A DNA stretch of 56,422 bases, the filler included, from Sphacelaria rigidula (lineage: Eukaryota), in assembly GCA_964200075.2 (NCBI GenBank). It is 7 parts of 7 records of this genome, joined end to end, with 100 filler letters (N's around TTAATTAATTAA, not from the genome) between each part and the next. Parts side by side here need not be neighbours in the genome. Positions count along the whole stretch, not along the records: positions 48,449 to 56,422 come from CAXNAA020012785.1; 6 more parts are not named here. One strand, written 5' to 3'. A program made the translations under genes and the position numbers. Below the pieces are notes generated by a model. The model saw only the letters and a program-made list of their open reading frames with translations, was not told the DNA's origin and did not search any database. Below, one piece after another: positions 15,270-55,768 of the stretch; position 1 is the stretch's first letter; every line of letters begins with the position of its first letter.

Positions 15270-15574
15270 GTGCTATTTACGATTGGTTGCTCCTGTGCTG
15301 GGCATGTGTGCTCCTTTCCAGTTGGCCGTGGGGATGCAAGTTGTGCGTGCGTGTGGTCTTGTGCAGTCTGTAAATTGTAAACTTCGCTGTATTTTTTTTA
15401 TGGAGGGGGGAGAGGGGGGGCGTTGTTACCTTTTGCGTGTTTGGGGTAAGAAACGCTGTGCGGTCAAGAACTGTGGTGTCGCCTGAGTGTGAACGAGTAT
15501 GTGCGCTTGTGGAATATTGAGCCACCTCATGCTGTGGAGGGAGTGTACTCATGGTCTTGCATATCATGCTGTGG

Positions 15575-16045
15575 AGGGGGGGGGGTGTACTCATTTGTTG
15601 GTTGCCTTGGCCATTTCAGGAGGTTTCAGGAGCATCGCTTTCCCGGCAGTGTATTTGACCATGACCACGCATTCCTTTCGAGACGGAGCGCGTTCCTACT
15701 CGTGATGGAGACGCTGTGGAGAGGGCGAGGGGGCGGGGGACGCCCTCATTTGTTGCTCCCCTAAGTCATTTGACCATTGACCACATTTCTTTCGAGGCGC
15801 GGCACCGTTACTGTGGAGGCGGGGGGGCAGTACAGCACAGCACGATATGCTGTTTCTCACGTGTTGATGGAACTTGAACGTGACTTCACTCGTTCATCAA
15901 TTTCATGCATGCACGGGGGAATCCTTGCTACCTCTACTCTGTTGCGGAGTCATCCTACGATAGGGGGGGGGGGGGGGGGGCCTCACGTGTTGTTTGCCTT
16001 GGTGGTTTGGCCTTTGACCCAGCACCCCTTTCGAGGCGGGGGAAG
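15575..16045 (-). mobile_element. Cluster of three degenerate copies of the poly(C)-tailed ~65-nt element
   Basis: G-run + ctcatttgttg...tttgaccattgaccac...tttcgag at ~15575, ~15735 and ~15963. Confidence 0.7.
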
Positions 16046-16427: not shown

Positions 16428-16503
16428 GGGGGGGGGGAGCATACTCAATTGTTGCTTGCCTTAGTCGTTTGACCATTGACCACGCATCGCTTTCGAGACG
16501 GAG
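16428..16503 (-). mobile_element. Poly(C)-tailed ~65-nt element
   Basis: G-run + catactcaattgttgcttgccttagtcgtttgaccattgaccacgcatcgctttcgagacggag. Confidence 0.8.
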
Positions 16504-16880
16504 CATCGTTGCTACTCCACATAGAGACACCTCCAGCATTTGGGCGCTCATTAGGTTTCTTCCATAATCACACATTTTCTTTTTTTATATCTCATCCCGT
16601 GCCTGTTTCGCCGTCTGTGACCACCACTTACCTATAGCAATCGTTTTCTCGCTACTACATAATGATCTAACATACCGAACGGTTTCATACCACCGTCGTT
16701 TAGTTCCTTCCTGACTGCGGCGGCTGGAGTGGGGGAGTGAGCTTTAAAGGGGACCACAAGTTGTATTTCTGGGTGACTAACAACAACAAGACTTGATTGA
16801 AAAGGGGCTTTACGTTGACAGTTTTGCCCGCTGAACGCGGTGGATGATGTGGTACGATGCCCCCCCTTGCCGTTGATCAC

Positions 16881-17057
16881 CTTAAAGCTGTACTTTCCCG
16901 GCACGCAGAAAAGGAATACGCCCGTTCGTACCACGTGCTCCGCTTGGTGTCGCTTCCTATCCTTTGCCATCACCATATTTTCGCAGCCCTCCCACACACA
17001 GTGCATCAGTCGGTGGTCACACAGCTCGTGCTCGTGCTCTATCCGTTCCTCTTCTGA
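16881..17057 (-). CDS. TRAF-type zinc-finger protein, exon 6 of those visible
   Basis: cgcag| ... AAG|gtgatc, 177 nt in phase 0: SEEERIEHEHELCDHRLMHCVWEGCENMVMAKDRKRHQAEH...PGKYSFK. Confidence 0.85.
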
Positions 17058-17869
17058 CTGCGGGAACGAACAAACAGGAAGAAAATCGAGGACAAGATTG
17101 ACTTATTTTCGATCCGATGAATGCGCACGGGGTGAAGCATATTCGCTACAACTATCAAGCATCTACACGACTCTTTGGGATCTCCCACGTGCATCAGCGA
17201 CGAGGACGACATCTTAAAGACAATCGGGAACGCATGCTTACCAAACAGGGTGACGCCGCAACCGCTGAAGAAGAGACTTCACAGTGCGCGCTTGCAGTTT
17301 AACGAAGCAGAGGTTTTGTCGCTGCAGTATTAAACGATAGCTACGTTAGTTGTGTTTTGCCCTTTGTTGCATTCCGTTCATATACTCCGACATCGCCTTT
17401 ACTAACTCGTAAGCTACTTGTGGACTGTTCGTAAACGGGAGTTATTCTCACTTTCCCGTTATCCCGTTCTTCAACTCGTGGCCGTCCGCTTTTGCTCGTC
17501 CGGGTAACAAGGATGCCCACCCAATGATGACAACCCCTCCCCGCGATTCGCTCCCAATGTACTACCTCAACGATGCTCCTAATGTGATCACAATCACTCT
17601 GGATTAGGAACAGGCAATGAGTACCTGAATTCCGTACGTCTATAACAACATGTCGGTTCAAACTACTCGCACTGTTTTGAGTCGCTTGGTTGACCACTTC
17701 GAGTTCATGAGGACAGATAGATGTGCACCACCTGCGTTTTGGACGTGATGTTGGTATCTACGTACGAATAGACTAGGTCACAGTAGTGGTTTATCATCAA
17801 GTCATGGCAACAAGTAACAGTAAACTAACTGCAGGCCAGCTTTTTTTGTCGTTTTATTCAACACCGCAC

Positions 17870-19529: not shown

Positions 19530-19618
19530 TGGGGGGGGTAGGGGGGGGGCGTACGCATTTGTTGCTTGCCTTAGTCGTTTGATCATTGACCACGCATCGC
19601 ATCCCTGTCGAGACGGAG
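19530..19618 (-). mobile_element. Poly(C)-tailed ~65-nt element (intronic)
   Basis: G-run + cgtacgcatttgttgcttgccttagtcgtttgatcattgaccacgcatc...gagacggag. Confidence 0.8.
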
Positions 19619-19969
19619 CACCACACTCCGGGAGAGAACTCAGTGCATCGCGATACGCACTGGTTGGTGGAACATGACATAACTGAGCCTTGTTGGTCGA
19701 CTTTAACCACACGACAAGAGGTATAGAGCCAGTCCCCCGCACACAGCACCCCCGTGAACATCAGCAGGAACGCTTAGTATGTACTTGAACTCAGGCACCC
19801 TACTACACAGTCTCGACAGCCTGATGAGGTCCGTAGGGCGCGACGTGGCTGTATCCTGCAAGTCGGAAATGGAGGTGTTTATCTCAATTGCAATTGGTAT
19901 GGTGGGCAATAAGACCGGGTTCCACACGTGAGCATTTCACACGAACATATTTAGTCATCCGTAATATCA

Positions 19970-20494: not shown

Positions 20495-22170
20495 CTGGGT
20501 AGGTACGTGCGTTCGTTCAAACAAGATCACGTGCGTCCCTGTTTGCTTGTGCGTAAGGCCGTGCAAGTCCGTCGTCCTTCATTGTTCATTTTCAAGGCTA
20601 TCTATGTTTCCCATCTGTAACGCCGCATGCTGTTTTTTTGCCGCAGTGTTTTTTTCGTGTTTCGCGAGGAGTTAAATACCTCTCAAAAGCAGTGCATCAT
20701 CACCCCCCTACTCCCGTCGTGCAGTTCCAAAAGGGGCGGGAGGTAACCTCCATCCAGGCAATTAAGCTGTCAGACGCAGTCAGACGTCGAATATGACTCC
20801 GGCTCATTTGATGAGAGTCTATGATTGGACTCGAAGTGAGAATATCTACCGGTAGAATAGTGACAAGTGTTGACCTTGGGTCAGGGAACCGATTTGATGT
20901 CTCGGTCGATGAAAAGAGGTCTGCTGAGTCACGGAGTTGCTCGGAGGCCGCCTTACACCTCAGATCATGCCGCGGCAGGGGCTGCACGTTTGGGTCCTGG
21001 TCATTCTCATTGAGGGGCTGCTTATCTTAGGAGCTACACAAGAATACGGGTCAGGACATTCCCGTTTGAACATTCATTCGCGATATTCCTAGCCCATTGG
21101 AGTGCTAACCGTTACAGGCTCTCACATATTTCATAAGTCGCTTTTTGGACGAAAGAGAGGGCTCCTAACAATTCAAACGTGAGAAATATTTTGTACAAAC
21201 CTACTGTGGCATCACTTTCCCATAGAATATGACTCAGGTCACTACTGAATCCCTATGCGCATCTCTCTAGCGAGTGTCCCGACTGTTCAATTTGGGTAGG
21301 TCTATCTTGTGACCACAGCTTGATAGTGACTTGCGGCGGATCATTAATGCTGACGTACGGCGACCAACAAACCAATGCCATCATTCAATCAATCAAGCGG
21401 GTCACTCACGCATGCAGCTCCGGTATTTAGATGTAGAGTGTATTTAAACTGTTTTTCGGTGGCATACCAAGTAGGATACATAGCATGTGTCCAGGGACAC
21501 GTCATGCAGACACCGAGTGCGGGTAATTTTATGCACATGCGGCACACAGTAGACGTCATTATTCCACTTGAAGGGGGGGAATGGGGGGGGGGGGGGGGGG
21601 GCTGCGATATGACTAACTCTTGAATATTTATCAATAAAATACCTAAATTGTGGTGCCATCAGAGGCCCTTTCCCCTCAAAAATGTACATAGAGGCATGGT
21701 GATTCCGTTGACGGCTCAGTGATGGTATATTCTACTGAATAATTTCTCCTTAAAGGAGCGCATAGCGTTTGATGAATCCTCTAGATAATTACGGACGCAC
21801 GCTGCGGTAAACCGCAGAAAATGACACGCGGTTATGAACAAACAACACCACAGAGATAAGGACAACATAGTTTCGGCGATATGCAATACTAAGTAGAACC
21901 GTACGAAATGTGTTCAACATACACGCCTGGCTGCCGTCATTGTTGTAAAAGCTGCAAGCATCTCGACAACACCGACGCTGTACGGACAAAGCACAACATG
22001 TGTCTCCACCAAACGTTCTCGCGCAAGATAGGTCGAGCGACACGTCGTTCATGTGGCCGGCAGCACCGCATGTGTCGAGATCCTCACGGATACAAACGCG
22101 CCCGGATCCCGCTAAAATCCGGTGTTGATAAACAGCATCTTGCGGCAGTACATTCAAAATACGGCCTTAC

Positions 22171-32741: not shown

Positions 32742-33325
32742 ATAATAGTATTATTATATTTGTGATCGAGTACTTCACCTTCTTTCTGCGGTGGTTGAAT
32801 TATTTTTTTCATCGCGAAAAGGGTTTGGCAGTCAACAGTTTTTTTTCTTCCGACCCCAATTGTTTGTCGCCAATCGTAAAACGTGCAAACGCATATCACA
32901 CGACAACTTCCCAGGTTTCTAGGATCAGACCGATTCAAGCATATCTCTGTGAACTGCAGATCAATATGGTCATGCACGTCTTGCCCACCCCCCCCCCAAA
33001 AAAAAACAAAATATACTGCATAATATATGCTACAAGGGCGTGTCTTCGCGCTTTTTCTCCCAATCGAAAACGTGCGGTCGATTTTTTTGTAGCAATGGCC
33101 TAGAAGAGGTATACCTTCTCGTTTTTTGCCCAAGAAAGGTACGAAAAATGGCCAGACACGCGAAAACAGCCAAACACGCCATTTTGACCGTTTTCGCTCC
33201 GAATTTTTTCAAGCACATCATTTGAGGGGGCAATTGGCACCCGGGCCTCGAAAAAAACGAGAAAAAAACGTGTTGCTCGAGAGATATGGCCACGCGAAAA
33301 CGGACGTCTCGCCTTCAGAAACCCC

Positions 33326-33404
33326 CCTCCGTCTCGAAAGGGATGCGTGGTCAATGGTCAGACGACTAAGGCAAGCAACACATGAGAACGCCCCCCACCC
33401 CCCC
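33326..33404 (+). mobile_element. Poly(C)-tailed ~65-nt element
   Basis: ctccgtctcgaaagggatgcgtggtcaatggtcagacgactaaggcaagcaacacatgagaacg + C-run. Confidence 0.8.
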
Positions 33405-33980: not shown

Positions 33981-34561
33981 CTCCATTCTACCGCCTCTGG
34001 CAATTCTGGTGGGATGTCCAAAACGTCTGCCATCCGGAAACCAGCATGATATAGTGATACTAGCCCGCAAGACAGTAAATCCGAGCCACTACACGGCCCC
34101 CGATACATATGCCTGAAGCCGATGCGAGCTGCGGTGAATTAGTCGCAACCGAGTAAGACCGTTCATGCCGGTTACATGGGGTTGCGTGGGCTACGTATTT
34201 AAGATTATAATTGAGAGGCAACACCACATCCTGAAAGCGCCATGTCCACGTCACGTAATCATGTCCTAGCTAACCCTTGTCAAATGTCCAAAATTGTACA
34301 GTACATATATGCATCCTGCAAACCGAAACCCCGAGGCGTGCTGGGACGTCTCGTGAAACGAAGCAGCCTTGCTTCGTATCTTCTGCCGTGCTATTCGATT
34401 GCAGTATATAGTGGAGGAAACTTCCTACTCGGCGGGTGCCGTGGTGTAAAACGCCAACCGGTTCCTGCGGGGGAATGAACCCCATGTGCCCCCCCCCCCC
34501 CCCCCCCCATAAAATCGGCTTGGAGATGCCGACACGCGACATCTGCGGCAACAACGCCTAC

Positions 34562-37500
34562 TCAGCACTGGCCGGCCCAGCTCCCTCCTCGAGTCGTTCG
34601 TCTACTCTCTAGACCTTCCCTCTTGTTGCGCCACATAACGGCATCCGCGTCGGTAGTTGGGAACTTTGATCTTCCATCCCTAACTAGTTGGAGTCGGGAT
34701 CCATCCCCGTCCCCGGGGGAAAAAATGTACTGTCTTGATACGTTGTCCTCGAAATCGGATGACGACAGCCTACTTGCACCCACCCTCTTCTGGGGCATGG
34801 TCCAGTAAGGGGCGAAGATGTATGCAGTAGAAAACTCGTATTCATCCGGCCGAATGCGGTCACCGATGTTCAAGTTGCGAACAAGCGGACGTTCGTGGCG
34901 TCTTGTGCAATCGTCACGTTCCGCTACGTCGCGCATGTCAGAGGACACTGCGTTCCATACATCCGCCTCCTTCTCGGGAATCAATCCCTGCGAGATCTTG
35001 GTGTGGGTATCATCTATGACCTGTCGTATCTTGTCGATAACACTGCGATCCAAACGTTGGGGTGTAGACGAAGAACACCGGGATCATGAAGTGTTTGGTG
35101 TCAGACCGCGTACATAGTTGATCCACGCAGAAAAAGAGATGGTTAAGGATATTAATTTAGGGAAACTTGATGGCGCCGAGTCGGTTTCAGAAACCGCATG
35201 CGTTACCTCTCTCGAAGGTTTCTAGCAGGACGGGCACCGCTGTATGTCACTACGTGACTCATCTGCACATGCGTTTGGGGTATATTTTCGACGTTCTTCC
35301 ATGAATTACATTCCCATGAATGTGCGCACTGTAACATACCCTCACCCTTCAGGAGGGTGCACGGGACTTTCACCAACCAAAGCGCCGCCAGAGTCTAGTG
35401 CAACAGGAATTCCTGTCCTGCCATCTTTGGCGACGTTGATGGCTCTCTCGACTTCCGATTTCGGTGACGGGCCTGATTCATCGAAACTGCTGTCTCCTCC
35501 ACCATCGGACAAAAACACAACACAAGTGTTGGGTGTTCCGTGTATGGCAACCAGAGCGCCGTCCTCCTCAGGATCACCATCGCAGTCCTTCTCGTCACGG
35601 TTACCGTCACCGCCGCGATCCTTGTCGGGGAGACCGCCTCCGCCAGGTGCTTCTTGTCTTCTGCGTCGAGTTCCCCCACATCCTGCACCGCCGGTATTGT
35701 TGCTGCTGTTGTCGATATTCCCACGATCGGCACCATCATATTCGACAGGATTTCGTCCGAGAACTCACGATTCCGTGATTGTGGAGGAGGCGCGTACGAA
35801 GACTTATTTTTCCGAGATACGGGGGTCTTTTGGCGTGTGCCCTCCTTCCTCCGCTTAGGGTCACTTGAGCATACCCCTTTGCCGCTTCTCTTGGCGTCGG
35901 CATGTCCGCTCACCGATCGACCGCTGCCGGAATGCACATGGCTGGTGTATACCCCTCCCCCCTTCCCCTGTTCTCCTGCCGTAATTGGTCGGGTCGTCCA
36001 TGCATCAACGGCATCGCTGCCCTAGCCGTTGTCCATGGCACGGTTGTTGTGATACTTCACCGGCTCGCTCCCGCCGCCTGGGTCCGTATCGGGGGGGGGG
36101 AAGCGCGTTATTTTTCCCTTTTCCCTTCTGCATCGAGTTGGAGGAGGTGGACGGGTTCCTGCCGGCGTGACAGACGACGTGGGGGCGGCTGTGACTTTGG
36201 GCGTATTCGTTGTGGGTGGTGCAGTGGTTAGTAAGCTCTCGAGGTGCATGTTTCACTGTCGCCTGCGTCATATACAGCTGCTGTGCATACCACATCACGC
36301 CCCGAACAATAATTGCAATAGGTAGGGTTAGGGTTAGCCATCAGCGCTCACATATTCGCGTGAATATCCCATTCCATAAATAGAGACACGTTTGTTCGAT
36401 TGACAACCCCCCCCCCCCCAAGTCCAGATGCGTACAGTCACGTTTGACGTGCGCATGTCGATTGTCCGTGTGCAGGGGGGATTGGGGGGGGGTAGGGTCA
36501 GTGGTGCTGCAAATCGAACTCACCGCTGGGTGTTACTTGTCTTCGTGGTGACGTGTATCATACCGTCGGACCCGCCCATGACCTGCTCTAGTGCCTCGCA
36601 TATGTAGTGGGGCACTTGTATCATCTTCGGCGCGTTGTCATCGTCGCCGCTCCAGACTGCAACCGAGCGCGTATCGATGTTAATATCTGTGCAACATTAT
36701 CGGGAATACAGAAGTGTGTGAGTGTTCTTCTCGATGAAATATCGAGCGATCGCGTGCGGGTCACATTATGGCATATAATGAACGATCGCCCCACAATAAC
36801 GGGCGAGCATTTCCGTTCTCGACCTTCTGCGATCGCTCTGTGCGTGGGTGTGAGCATGACATCTTATGTCCAACAATTCATTATGGTAGCCCGTGGGTAT
36901 TGAGCACACGCTTTCTCGGTTGCAGAAACCGGTGGTTGTTTGACATTTATCCAGGGTGAATGCTGTGTAACAGACATGGGTGTAACGAGGAAGACAATCA
37001 AACGATGCGATGTAAGGTCACCGTTGCCGGTTGGACTCTTGGATACGAAGTGGGTACAGTTTTCGAGCATGCTCATTACTCACAGCGTGAGTATCCACAC
37101 GCATGCAGCACATGCATCAGGGCCATCGTGAAGGGTTCGGTGCCTTTTTCTTCTCAGTGTGAGACATCGACCGCTTGTGTCACGCGCCGTAAGAAATACT
37201 CGTCCGGGTATGTTATCCTCCGTGGAGGGGGATCGTGCCAACTCACCGGGTTGGGCGACTGCTGGTCCGCTGACAGGAGCAACATCTTCCGGCGTCGCTA
37301 CTGGGTCGTTAACATTGAGAAATATGGTGCCCTTGATGTATGCCCTTTCCATATCTGACAGGAAATATGGCCCGTTATCAGAGGTCCGACGCTTGGGTGC
37401 ATCACTTACGAGAAGCTTCTGGAATGCGAGAGATTTCTCGCCCTTGAGGTGATCGACGACGGCTCGGAAATCGTCGCAGACCATGACAGACTTATCTGCC

Positions 37501-40375: not shown

Positions 40376-40427
40376 TATGGTCAAACGACTAAGGCAAGCA
40401 ACAAATGAGTACGCCCCCCACCCCCCC
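40376..40427 (+). mobile_element. Poly(C)-tailed element, 3' part (cut by contig start)
   Basis: atggtcaaacgactaaggcaagcaacaaatgagtacg + C-run. Confidence 0.8.
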
Positions 40428-41439
40428 CAAAACCAGCTCAAAACTGAAACGGAAGAAATAGTCATACAGCGCCTGATCTTCTGTTCCACGCTATACGACG
40501 CGCCACATATGGGCGACAAGGACGAGAACAACCCCAAGCTTTGAAATTCCTAGCCGCTAATTGTGCCCGGCGTTTTTCATCTCGATTTACGTCTAGATTT
40601 TGCCTCCTCAAACCATTCACGTTTTGTGGGGGAGCTATCGTAGAAAGTGTCCCCTGCGCTTCCCCCCCCCCCCCCGTTTTTTTCGCCCTTTTCCTGTAAT
40701 CTGCGCCCCCTCCCTTTTTTTCCGCCCCTAATGTTGTTTTCCGGGCCTCATATTATTTCTAAAATATGCAGTATTTTCTGTTATTCTGCAACAAATCCTG
40801 CTTTTCCTGCTCTTTCTTTTTTTCGCAGCCGTGTCTCCGCGCCAAAAAAGCGGAATCCGGCGTTTTCCGCATTTCATGCTTTTTCTGTCATCGCAGGTGA
40901 AACAGAGACCTAGAAATCGAAATCTGCGATGTCCTATCGGAAATTTGCGCCAGGCATGTCTGCAATCCTAATTATGCTCTATCATCTATAAAATCTGCTG
41001 TATTCTCTGAAATCCTGCGACATGTATTTCTTTTCCTGCTGTTTTTTTCGCGGCCGTTGCCCTGCGCGAAAAAACGGATTTCTGCATCTTCCGCATTTTC
41101 TGCTCCTTCGGCGATCGCAGATAGAGTGGAGGCCTATATGTAGGCTGGCGTTCAAGGTAGCTACTGCATCATGTGTATAAACTCGCGCGATTTGAACTAG
41201 AAGTACGAAGAGTACGGAAGGTTGTCAACGGTTATGATGTGTAGCTCAGTGAGTATGTTGTCTACCCCATGCTCACTAGCTCGTGTGCTCGATTCCCCGC
41301 CCCACATCACAAACCCCTTTTTTCCCGGCAGAACGTTGCCCGCAGCTGCACGTGAAGGGTAGCGTTTGTGGGTAGGCACACTGCACAGTATTGCCAGCAG
41401 CGATGAACTCTTCATGGGGCACCGGAACCCTGTGATGCG

Positions 41440-46744: not shown

Positions 46745-46993
46745 GACTGCTGCCGAGATAGCCCCCCCCTGAACCGGCCAAAAATGTGCACGGAGGCGAT
46801 GGTCATCGATGCCGTTAAAGCTGGTTTCGTGCTGTACGACGCGACTCATTTGGGTATCATCGCTGATTTCAGACTGCTACACGTCTCGCATGTGGGCGAA
46901 ATTGCTGCAAACGAGCCGAATATTGGGATCGCAGCCGATTTGTCGGACGGTTTCCGGTGCACTTTTTGTGGGGGGGCTATCTCGGCATTAGTC
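46745..46993. mobile_element. ~250-bp MITE with TIRs and TSD
   Basis: gactgctgccgagatagcccccc / ggggggctatctcggcattagtc, flanked by TTCA (or CTTCAG if the ends are shifted by one base). Confidence 0.8.
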
Positions 46994-51907: not shown

Positions 51908-52105
51908 ATCGTGGAGGACGGGGCCGCCGAGGCGGCCCCGTCCGATCCTTGTATATTTTACAATATTTTTATATATTATATAACTTTATATATGAAGATT
52001 CATCAAGAGGCAGTATATACTACATTTTATAATTGTATATTCATATATATGCTATATAATATGTATATGATCCTTATATTATATTATACAAGGATCATCC
52101 ACGAA
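51908..52105. repeat. GC hairpin + CTTGT end, AT-rich spacer and inverted ACAAGGATC start (Helitron/Helentron-like junction)
   Basis: ggacggggccgcc-ga-ggcggccccgtcc then gatccttgtata. Downstream tatacaaggatcatccacg is the inverted copy lacking the hairpin. Confidence 0.5.
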
Positions 52106-52125
52106 ATGCGTGGAAAGGACTTAAT

Positions 52126-55100
52126 TTGAATTGGGAGAGAGTGGAAGACAATAGCCATGTCAGTGTCATGGTAGACAGTGATGCGTCGGGACATTACTTC
52201 GACGATACCCTCATCCCGGGGCTACGGTATAAGCTCCACAGCTACCAAGAACTGGCGACCCCGCGTACGATCACCACCGTAGGGGGGCATCACCTGGCAA
52301 GGGTTGGTAAAGGACTGCTCCGCGGCCACATCCAAGACGGCGAAGGGGTCAAACACCGGGTTCAGATTTCGTGTTTCGTCGTGCCTGGCTTGGGGCGGGA
52401 CTTGTTCTCCGTCAAACAAGCGACACGAAATGGTGTTGTGTCTATTTTCGACATGAACAACCCAAGACTGGAGACAGACAACTTCATCGTTCCGCTCCAG
52501 GAACTGGAGAGTGACCTGTATTTCTTGTCTCTGGAACTAAGCAGCGGCAACGACGCATCTAGACTGGCTTTGCAAGCTGCAGACGCCGCCACGCTGTGGC
52601 ATCGGAGGATGGGACACCTGAACAGCAATAGTTTGAATCTCTCAAAAACGTCGGAAGCAACGGAGTGGATTTCGGTGGAGTCGTTCTGGATTGCAATATT
52701 TGTGCCGTTGGGAAAAGTCATCAACTGGCCCACCCGAAGACAGCCAACAACAAAGTGCAACGCGCTTTTCAACTAGTCATGACTTATTTGACGGGACCGA
52801 TCATGCCGGAAGCGCTGGGAGGCTTCAAGTACGTCTGCAAGATCTCCGATGAGTGTACCAGATGGACAGAGGTTTACCTTCAAAAACCTAAGGACGGCAC
52901 TCTTAATGCATTTCAGTTCTACGTACAGTCAATGGCCATTCCTGGCGGTGTTCGGGTCGAACGACTAAGGGCGGATAAAGGCGGTGAGTTCATCGGCAAC
53001 GAGTTCAAGTCGTACGGCCGACAGACATACATATTGCTAGAGTTTGCAAGCACCAATACACCACAACAAATCGGCCTGTCAGAACGCGTGGGAAGGATGC
53101 TTGCAGCCATGGTCCGGTGCATGCTTGCTGAAAGTGGTTTGCCGACTTTTCTCTGGGGGGGGGGGGCGTACTCATTTGTTGCTTGCCTTAGTCATTTGAC
53201 CATTGACCACGCATCCCTTTCGAGACGGAGCGACTTTTCTCTGGGGGGAATTAATGTTTACAGCGGCCTATCTTGCAAACAGATCACCGCATTCGGCGCT
53301 TGACATGTAGTCGCCTCATCAGATGCTGAAGGGGACAGAACCGGATATCAAACACCTTCGAGTCGTCGGAGCCAGGGCTTTCGTACATATCGAGCGGCGT
53401 ACTTCGAAACTTGCTCTCAAAGCAGTTGAAGGACGACTAGTTAGGTACAGCACTGACAGTAAGAGCTACCGAGTCACAACCCGGCCACGCGACGTATCAT
53501 TGAGAGAAGGAACGTCGTCTTCATCGAGACTCCAACACACCTTACCCCGACGGGAGAGCAACAACTTCGGATACACCCATTTTCACTTGGTGACCAGAAA
53601 TGCAACAACAGAGAGGGCCACAATTACGTCACCGACGACGACTTCTTCCGTGATCTTCGCGACCACACCTCCGTACTAGCTCAACCGGCTCACACCTCCG
53701 TTGATGATATCACTGCCAGCGGGATCTCTAACGATCCACAGGTGGCCGAGCTTCTGGAGAGAATCAGCGCCATCACCGAGCGGGACATGCTGCACGACGA
53801 TGACACACCTCGTGAAGAGACGTCGCCAGCAGCATCACCGAAGAGCCGTGCGCCGCTGGAACAACCTGCACCCCCTTCTCGGGACGAAGTTAGCCAGTCC
53901 ACATCATCAGCCGCATCACCACTGCTCAACCGCTCTCGACACTCTCGCCATCAAGTAACTCCCACTGTGACGCGTGCAGGTACTGCAGCGCGCTCGTTCA
54001 GGGAACGCACCACCAGCAACGACGGCGCAGCTCCTGCGCACCTTTCAGCCACTGTGGACGACAAAATGCTCTCCGAGCTACGGTGACTGCAAATACACAC
54101 CAACGCGCTCCTACCAGATGTCGTGCACCAGACGTTTGGGACGGAATCAGTCGTAGAATACGCCTACACAACTACCAACCTCTCGAGCTGTCCAGTGGGG
54201 GAGAAAACCGAAAGAATCCCAAACATGTTCAATGAGGCCATCAGTCTCCCCGAAAAGGAACAATGGAAGGCGGCATCAGATGAGGAGATGGATAGCCTAA
54301 GAATAAATAACGTATATACTCTAGTGCCGTCAGGCTCCGTCCCAACTGGACACAGGTTAATCGGGTCCCGATGGGTGTACAAGAAGAAAGCGGATTCCTC
54401 GCACAAGGCCCGAGTCGTCGTGCTGGGTTGGGGAAAAGTGCCTGGCGTTGACTGTGGCAGCACTTTCGCACCGGTCTGCAGGATCCAAAGCATCCGCATG
54501 GTATTAGCTGTAGCGGCGGAGTACGACTTGGAGTGTCGATAACTGGACTACAACACCGCCTTTCTGAACGCCGAACACAAGGAAGAAGTTTACGTCAAGA
54601 TGGCGCCAGGATACGAGGAGTTTGACGCCAATGGAACTCCGATGGTAATGCGGCTTCACAAAAGTCTCTATGGCCTCCGTCAAAGTCCAAACTGCTGGTG
54701 GGGAACGGTCGACACACACCTGGCAGAGATTGGATTCAAGAGCCTTAAGTCGGACCCTTGCGTGTACATATACCAAGAGAGCGGCGACGTCTACATTTTG
54801 ACTTTATTCATCGATGACGTCCTACTGCTTGGGAAATATGTGAAAGTTCTGGGGAGGACCAAGCATAAACTGATGGGACGTTTCTCTATGACGGACATGG
54901 GAGATGGATCGTTAGTGCTGGGAATGGAGGTTGTTCGCGATCGCGTTAGGAAGACAGTCACCATCAGCCAGAAAAGTTACACCAAGTCCCTCCTGGAACG
55001 ATACGGAATGGCGGATCGCAACCCAGCATACACTCCTGGTGTGGGACAAGAACTGTCACTGAACCAGCCGAGGGAGAAATCTTTGAACGAGGAGGACAAA

Positions 55101-55768
55101 AAACGTTTCCAGGCCATTACGGGCAGTGTGATGTATCTCGCTCACGTGACACGCTACGACATTGGATACGCAGTGAATCAACTGGCGCGGGCGATGTCCA
55201 ATCCGTCGAAGGCGCATATGGCAGCTGCAAAACACTTGCTTCGATATTTGGCCGCCACTACAGATCATGTCATAACCTACAACCAGGGCGGTTTCCAATT
55301 GACGGCGTTCTCAGATGCGAACTGGGGTAACAACCCAGACAACGGGAAATCCACATCATCATATCTCATCTTTCTCTCGAATGGCCCCATCGTTTTAAGG
55401 TAGGACTACAAGGACTCACCGCGCAATCAACGATGGAAGCAGAACTCGTGGCCGCTGCACTCACCATAAAGGAAGGCATCTTTTGCTCGAATATGATGCG
55501 GGAGATGGGATTTGGCACACGCTTCGACTCCGTCCCTTTCTACATCAACAACACTTCAACTCTCCACGTCGCAGGGAACCGAACTTACAGCTCGAGAGTC
55601 AAGCACGTAGCTCTACGGTACCTCTTCATTCAGGAATTAGTCAAGGAGGGAAGGATCGACATTTGTTACGTCAAGACCGAAGACCAACTCGCAGACATAG
55701 GGACCGAGTGCCTCAGCAAACACAGGCACCGCCACCTCGTCAAGCTGATCAGCACATTCAAAATATGA
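52126..55768 (+). pseudogene. pol: Degenerate Ty1/copia pol polyprotein (protease, GAG-pre-integrase, integrase, RT, RNase H)
   Basis: VDSDASGHY; LWHRRMGH; CNICAVGK; LRADKGGEF...TPQQIGLSER; RWVYKKK..HKARVV; KSLYGLRQS; LFIDDVL; FSDANW; MEAELVA; QLADIGT. Several frameshifts and stops. Confidence 0.96.
53155..53230 (-). mobile_element. Poly(C)-tailed ~65-nt element inserted in the copia integrase
   Basis: Flanked by direct repeat CGACTTTTCTCT(GGGGGG) at 53143 and 53231. Removal restores LPTFLWGELMFTAAYLANRSP. Confidence 0.9.

Follow-up and report, generated by a model that had tools for sequence, protein, structure and literature searches.

Within a copia integrase of the brown alga Sphacelaria rigidula lies a 64-nt sequence that ends in a run of cytosines and recurs elsewhere in the same stretch of DNA. 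What is this repeat, and how does it come to lie at runs of G and C? The first-pass annotation had taken it for a non-autonomous retroposon in its own right, primed by C:G pairing, which would imply either a partner LINE that ends in poly(C) or a C-tailed small RNA.

A repeat with a C tail

The window, by which we mean the whole stretch of 56,422 nucleotides that was analysed, consists of seven chunks of about 7,975 nt each with N spacers between them. Searching the window with blastn-short placed the 64-nt core at eight loci in chunks 2, 3, 5, 6 and 7 of the seven (Table 1), in agreement with the at least eight copies in five of seven contigs that had been reported, and this amounts to about one copy per 7 kb of the window. 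When up to three mismatches were allowed, a 28-mer of the core matched the window four times and a 24-mer from the 5′ part of the core five times, compared with no match in 100 shuffles in either case. The statement that the copies always end in a C-run also holds, as a C-rich run directly follows eight of the eight. The tails comprise 12, 10, 6+7, 9+8, 6+8, 5+5 (interrupted), 10 and 18 C (loci 53167, 16442, 33327, 19550, 40377, 15745, 15587 and 15988, in this order). Three of the eight are bipartite, with two C-runs split by one or two other bases (C6 A C7, C6 A C8 and C9 TA C8).

Table 1. Copies of the repeat and associated features in the window, with the extent of the blastn-short core match where it was recorded separately.
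Feature	Position	Strand	Core match
64-nt 5′-truncated LINE 3′ end (last 20 codons, stop and 5 nt), within copia integrase	53167..53230	-	
Oligo(C) tail, 6 C past the duplicated C6 (plus strand reads G)	53161..53166	-	
18-bp target-site duplication, tail-side copy, CGACTTTTCTCTGGGGGG	53143..53160	.	
18-bp target-site duplication, 5′-side copy, CGACTTTTCTCTGGGGGG	53231..53248	.	
LINE 3′ fragment of ~252 nt, ~75 codons of the ORF end; duplication not found	16442..16693	-	16442-16503(-)
C10 tail of the 16.5-kb copy	16428..16437	-	
LINE 3′ end of ~68-73 nt, probably longer with deletions; duplication not found	19550..19622	-	19550-19618(-)
Bipartite tail C9, TA, C8	19531..19549	-	
Truncated copy of 64 nt with 6-7-bp duplication ACCCCC(C)	33327..33390	+	33327-33386(+)
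Bipartite tail C6, A, C7	33391..33404	+	
Last 37 nt of a copy cut by chunk start; tail C6, A, C8	40377..40428	+	40377-40413(+)
Head-to-tail serial insertions at one C-run, target copies TCCACAG... around each	15527..15827	-	
Array member of ~74 nt	15745-15812	-	15745-15784
Array member of ~89 nt with 38-nt internal insert	15587-15712	-	15587-15688
Array mini copy of ~20 nt	15539-15560	-	
Diverged copy with C18 tail, 5′ side cut by chunk end	15963..16039	-	15988-16035

An insertion with an empty counterpart

The copy at 53167-53230 (minus strand) offers the clearest view of an insertion. It sits in a copia element with rve and RVT_2 matches and is flanked by an 18-bp duplication that starts in a G6 run, as the first-pass annotation had noted of a direct repeat with a G6 edge. 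Contigs of two public runs join position 53142 to 53231, the 18 letters fitting either side of the joint; these contigs represent a paralogous copia without the insert, in which the 18-mer, with its G6 run, is present once. The claim that excision restores the integrase reading frame was likewise borne out: the frame continues once the 88 nt of 53143-53230 are left out, though other stops remain in the copia element. Read along the plus strand, 53143-53230 presents the target, G6, six more G and the complement of the LINE end described below, in this order.

The host element itself (52060-55403, plus strand) is an inactive copy: apart from the insertion, several stops interrupt its frame, and the frame shifts at least once more between integrase and reverse transcriptase.

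The core encodes the C-terminus of a LINE protein

The 64-nt repeat is, with a probability of roughly 0.85, the 3′ terminus of an autonomous LINE that encodes an AP-endonuclease, a reverse transcriptase and a CCHC motif, and whose lineage is so far known from brown algae only. A 24-mer scan of metagenome contigs returned a single locus (L001), in which the core ends a 209-codon open frame. This frame holds a CCHC motif, CPCGKAIESRTHIVAEC, and closes with ...NGAPSRKRCVVNGQTTKASNK (...TKASNK), followed by the stop codon, 5 nt and C10. A search for longer relatives returned nine proteins, among them P0003 with 1360 aa and P0006 with 1328 aa, giving the LINE protein a length of about 1,330-1,360 aa with domains for AP-endonuclease and reverse transcriptase as well as the CCHC motif. 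RVT_1 was matched with E = 9.8e-31 in P0003 and 1.7e-32 in P0006, and Exo_endo_phos, N-terminal to the reverse transcriptase, with E = 3.4e-12 and 8.1e-15, respectively. The C-terminal 20-21 or so residues of both proteins are those encoded by the core.

Conservation of this end extends across the family. The C-terminus reads ...TKASNK or ...TTASNK in six of the eight relatives from the first search that were read or aligned; the last residues of P0008 diverge, and P0009 is cut short. The last 21 residues form the best-conserved block of the last 209, with a mean pairwise identity of 0.79 compared with 0.46-0.73 in the other blocks. P0011, an Ectocarpus protein from a second search that is 47% identical, keeps the motif and ends in NNAPSSRGRVVNGLTAK. 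All named relatives of the LINE protein come from Ectocarpus sp. and Sphacelaria rigidula, both brown algae; an Atlas search returned unnamed clusters only, and viral scans for the core returned 0 loci.

Within the window, tblastn placed the C-terminus of P0003 on three copies, and the protein matched there only in C-terminal pieces of at most 75 codons. A full-length DNA copy was not found among the related loci, every one of which is 5′-truncated, and the link from endonuclease and reverse transcriptase to the tail accordingly runs through protein sequences and not through one DNA molecule.

This LINE has almost no 3′ UTR, its stop codon standing 5 nt before the oligo(C) tail. Because the core reads in the coding direction of the LINE ORF and the stop codon precedes the C-run by 5 nt, the C-run is the 3′ tail; the polarity that had been proposed, a C tail and not a G head, is thereby settled by the coding strand and the stop codon. 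A poly(C)-ended partner LINE, as had been postulated, also exists: the end of the L001 ORF is followed by C10 and its relatives carry endonuclease and reverse transcriptase.

The copies form a 5′-truncation series

Measured against the 3′ end of L001, the window copies comprise the last 252, 89 (plus a 38-nt insert), 74, 68, 65 and 64 nt, and two further copies are cut by chunk borders. Along its full length, the 64-65-nt unit aligns colinearly with the LINE, and a foreign 5′ head is absent. ARAGORN found 0 tRNA-like genes in the unit and Rfam gave 0 matches, and therefore there is no sign of a small-RNA origin that carries a Pol III promoter. A head derived from tRNA, 7SL, 5S or snRNA with such a promoter, as expected of a SINE, is thus lacking (ARAGORN 0, Rfam 0, colinearity with the LINE), while the other property expected of a SINE, a 3′ end in common with a partner LINE, is trivially present because the unit is itself the LINE 3′ end. 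Both a tRNA-derived SINE (ARAGORN, 0 genes) and a hammerhead or other Rfam RNA (0 matches) were rejected as candidates. By contrast, the properties expected of a LINE were all found, namely reverse transcriptase, AP-endonuclease, variable duplications together with 5′ truncation, and a 3′ homopolymer tail. On this point we depart from the first-pass annotation: instead of a separate non-autonomous retroposon, the unit is LINE-colinear without a foreign head, and its copies form a 5′-truncation series.

The 38-nt insert of the copy at 15587-15712 (minus strand) partly repeats the adjoining LINE sequence (GGGAAAGCGATGC...) and may reflect a template switch during reverse transcription.

Target sites and a proposed route of insertion

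Target-site duplications could be sought in seven copies, that is, in six of the eight loci and in the ~20-nt mini copy (15539-15560). Five of the seven show one, of 18, 12, 9, about 8 (imperfect) and 6-7 bp; in the other two a duplication was not found. All five have a C-run at their tail-side edge: four begin in the C-run, and the 12-bp duplication has C's directly before it on both sides. At 15527-15827, three copies lie head to tail, each bracketed by its own TCCACAG... target copy, and these shared brackets fit repeated insertion at one C-run.

Retroposition by target-primed reverse transcription, as had been suggested, is thus upheld by variable-length duplications, 5′ truncation and an empty site. 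Duplication lengths range from 6 to 18 bp at C/G runs, as anticipated, a fixed short duplication was not seen, and terminal inverted repeats are absent, again as stated earlier. The mechanism is ordinary target-primed reverse transcription; what is unusual is the oligo(C) tail and the G-run target.

In the route that we propose, the endonuclease would nick at the 3′ side of a G-run, and the 3′ end of the G-run would anneal to the oligo(C) terminus of the RNA to prime cDNA synthesis, which would usually abort or switch about 65 nt in. At the copia site, the second nick would have fallen 18 nt away from the first. Each new C tail would then offer a fresh target, from which arrays could grow. The plus-strand layout at 53143-53230 is the one expected from a nick after G6, G:C priming and cDNA extension. 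Three features lie outside this scheme. The bipartite tails (three of eight) are not predicted by simple G:C annealing; additional nucleotides on the RNA terminus, or nucleotides added without a template, are possible causes. Random truncation would not ordinarily yield 5′ ends as sharp as the one at -65, which the priming scheme does not explain. Lastly, the predicted folding of the 3′ 97 nt does not exceed that of shuffled sequence (z = -0.64).

Abundant head-to-tail copies and what they may mean

Public runs yielded between 2,256 and 64,767 contigs on the element per run, counts behind which some of the runs are metagenomes. In run X1, the summed depth reached 4.1-4.4 million on the core compared with about 1,000-28,000 on the flanks, figures that do not represent copy number. 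The copies are very abundant and often lie head to tail. Among the joints listed, head-to-tail joints occur in at least 57 contigs of X1, at least 142 of X2 and at least 113 of X4, with periods of 70-78 nt, and 50 of the 57, 122 of the 142 and 104 of the 113 start at position 53231, which is 65 nt before the 3′ end (-65). Among the loose ends listed, other copies extend into LINE sequence, and these ends point to another favoured start site 12-13 nt to the 5′ side.

A scan of genome contigs returned one locus, within a MAG labelled Verrucomicrobiales bacterium (G001). This MAG holds seven matches at 72-91% identity on eukaryote-like contigs. All of these copies are 5′-truncated, a C-rich tract lies directly 3′ of five of the six visible 3′ ends, and in a head-to-tail tandem pair the second copy begins at CTCTGTCTCG again. 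Repeating the search of the MAG with the 65-nt core did not find new copies. The contigs C61, C201, C222, C234 and C287 of this assembly (loci L003-L011) bear brown-alga-type LINE ends; they are probably eukaryotic and were binned by mistake.

The recurrent start invites the reading that the 65-nt unit, along with a 77-nt form, is a minimal self-standing retroposon, present as a discrete short RNA whose 5′ end is defined, moved by the LINE enzyme in trans and multiplied by template jumping, and not a truncation that was dead on arrival. In its favour are the clustering of the listed joints at 53231, the same start base in two window copies, the same start again in a copy from another species and the second start indicated by the loose ends. 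Against it, the unit is LINE-colinear throughout and without a head of its own, neither a tRNA-like gene nor an Rfam family was found in it, other copies measure 68, 74, 89 and 252 nt, and the shares of joints apply to those listed and not to the genome as a whole. We consider a self-standing 65-nt retroposon rather unlikely.

The head-to-tail copies could also be a satellite, amplified as DNA by unequal crossing-over or replication slippage, in favour of which are the many tandem joints with periods of 70-78 nt. However, the period follows the length of the C-run (70, 73, 74, 77 and 78), the units of the window array are unequal (about 74, 89+38 and 20 nt), and each unit is surrounded by its own TCCACAG... 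target copy, which makes amplification as DNA improbable.

Two-colour sequencers can yield poly-G, and the first-pass annotation had itself noted an ambiguity of polarity; nothing else spoke for a G head, a DNA transposon or an artefact. The last group of explanations is scarcely credible: a reversed polarity with a G head conflicts with the direction set by coding strand and stop codon, a DNA transposon was rejected on the lack of terminal inverted repeats and on duplications whose length varies from 6 to 18 bp, and a homopolymer (poly-G) sequencing artefact was rejected as the same tail recurs across independent sources, namely an independent metagenome contig, a second genome record and the runs of three studies.

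Returning to the LINE 3′ end as the preferred reading, a wider proposal can be made, which we put forward as speculative and rather doubtful in its full extent. A brown-algal LINE lineage may have swapped A:T for C:G priming and come to seed its own targets, producing satellite-like arrays and a large part of the surplus G/C homopolymers; its 65-nt unit would be a discrete RNA, the shortest known retroposition template, and would be copied with template jumps.

Other homopolymer runs in the window

The window contains 18 G/C runs of at least 8 nt, compared with about 1.3 expected for equal and independent bases, and seven of the 18 are tails of the element. Among the sequences upstream of the remaining C/G runs, none was common to them that would indicate a second C-tailed family. 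Long C-runs of 20, 13, 14 and 10 lie at 34489-34508, 36407-36419, 40662-40675 and 32988-32997, and neither a recognisable upstream repeat nor a common family was found for these four.

On the minus strand, further bipartite C-runs were observed at 21573-21601 (C19 ATT C7), 36475-36492 (C9 AAT C6) and 15405-15420 (C7 TCT C6). An intact LINE end does not precede any of the three, and the run at 15405-15420 follows sequence that resembles a decayed copy; each of the three could be the tail of another copy or of a very short one. Separately, an inverted repeat at 46747-46986 comprises GCCGAGATAG with C8 and G7 with CTATCTCGGC, its arms about 200 nt apart. It may represent a hairpin, or else a small inverted-repeat element with a terminal homopolymer.

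Consequences for genome annotation

Copies of 64 nt are small enough to evade repeat masking, and gene models of Ectocarpus and Sphacelaria already fuse the LINE end to host ORFs. In P0005 and P0007 (gene models from Sphacelaria and Ectocarpus), the C-terminal part of the LINE is fused to a lipase-like ORF (PF01764) and a gypsy polyprotein; these fusions are probably annotation artefacts from truncated LINE ends. A comparable arrangement was observed in the window at 16632-17102 (minus strand), where a Cys/His-rich, host-like part of a 156-codon open frame without Pfam match runs directly into the LINE fragment, and gene prediction would probably merge them into one model.

Beyond annotation, a C-tailed LINE may account for many of the G/C homopolymers, and for short arrays of tandem copies, that brown-algal genomes contain. 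With tail and target shifted together from A/T to C/G, the element allows a test, set up by nature, of the extent to which pairing between primer and template governs the target choice of LINEs.

Comparison with known LINEs

The element belongs to a known kind, the LINEs that encode an AP-endonuclease and transpose by target-primed reverse transcription. For Ectocarpus, passages of PMC12477816 describe LINEs of CRE, RTE, RTE-X and Unknown families with thousands of often 5′-truncated copies, RTE-X being the most abundant group, as well as very short and abundant derivatives such as RTEX-N1_Ec32 that have the LINE 3′ end. As far as these passages go, the present LINE resembles the Ectocarpus families in being brown-algal, abundant and 5′-truncated and in having very short derivatives with the LINE 3′ end. 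These main-text passages make no mention of a C tail or a G-run target, and its supplements may describe the tail. Literature searches found no relevant description of a LINE tail of poly-C or oligo-C or of a G-run target, the one passage on 'poly G' being unrelated.

Non-poly(A) tails as such are familiar. According to the part of PMC3747384 that treats them, UnaL2 ends in (TGTAA)n, the I element in (TAA)n and green-algal RTEX in (CA)n or (CAA)n, and the tail table of that source (Table 3) gives (A)n and several short repeats and no (C)n. Like the LINEs of the 'stringent' type, the present element combines a 3′ end conserved in all copies with a non-poly(A) tail, which by analogy probably serves template positioning or slippage. 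Unlike in those LINEs, the conserved 3′ end is coding sequence and not UTR.

In a PDB search with the reverse transcriptase region, human L1 ORF2p was matched with E = 6.6e-21 and an R2 protein almost equally well, with E = 8.8e-20. In mammalian LINE-1, the nick falls at TTTT/AA and the tail is poly(A). The present LINE shares with L1 a protein with AP-endonuclease and reverse transcriptase, frequent 5′ truncation and variable duplications, and for L1 as for the present LINE, the tail and the tail-side duplication edge consist of the same homopolymer, so that they merge. It differs from L1 in a stop codon that stands 5 nt before the tail, in a conserved 3′ terminal sequence as in 'stringent' LINEs and, above all, in the pairing on which insertion would depend, with a C tail and a G-run primer here where L1 has an A tail and a T-run primer.
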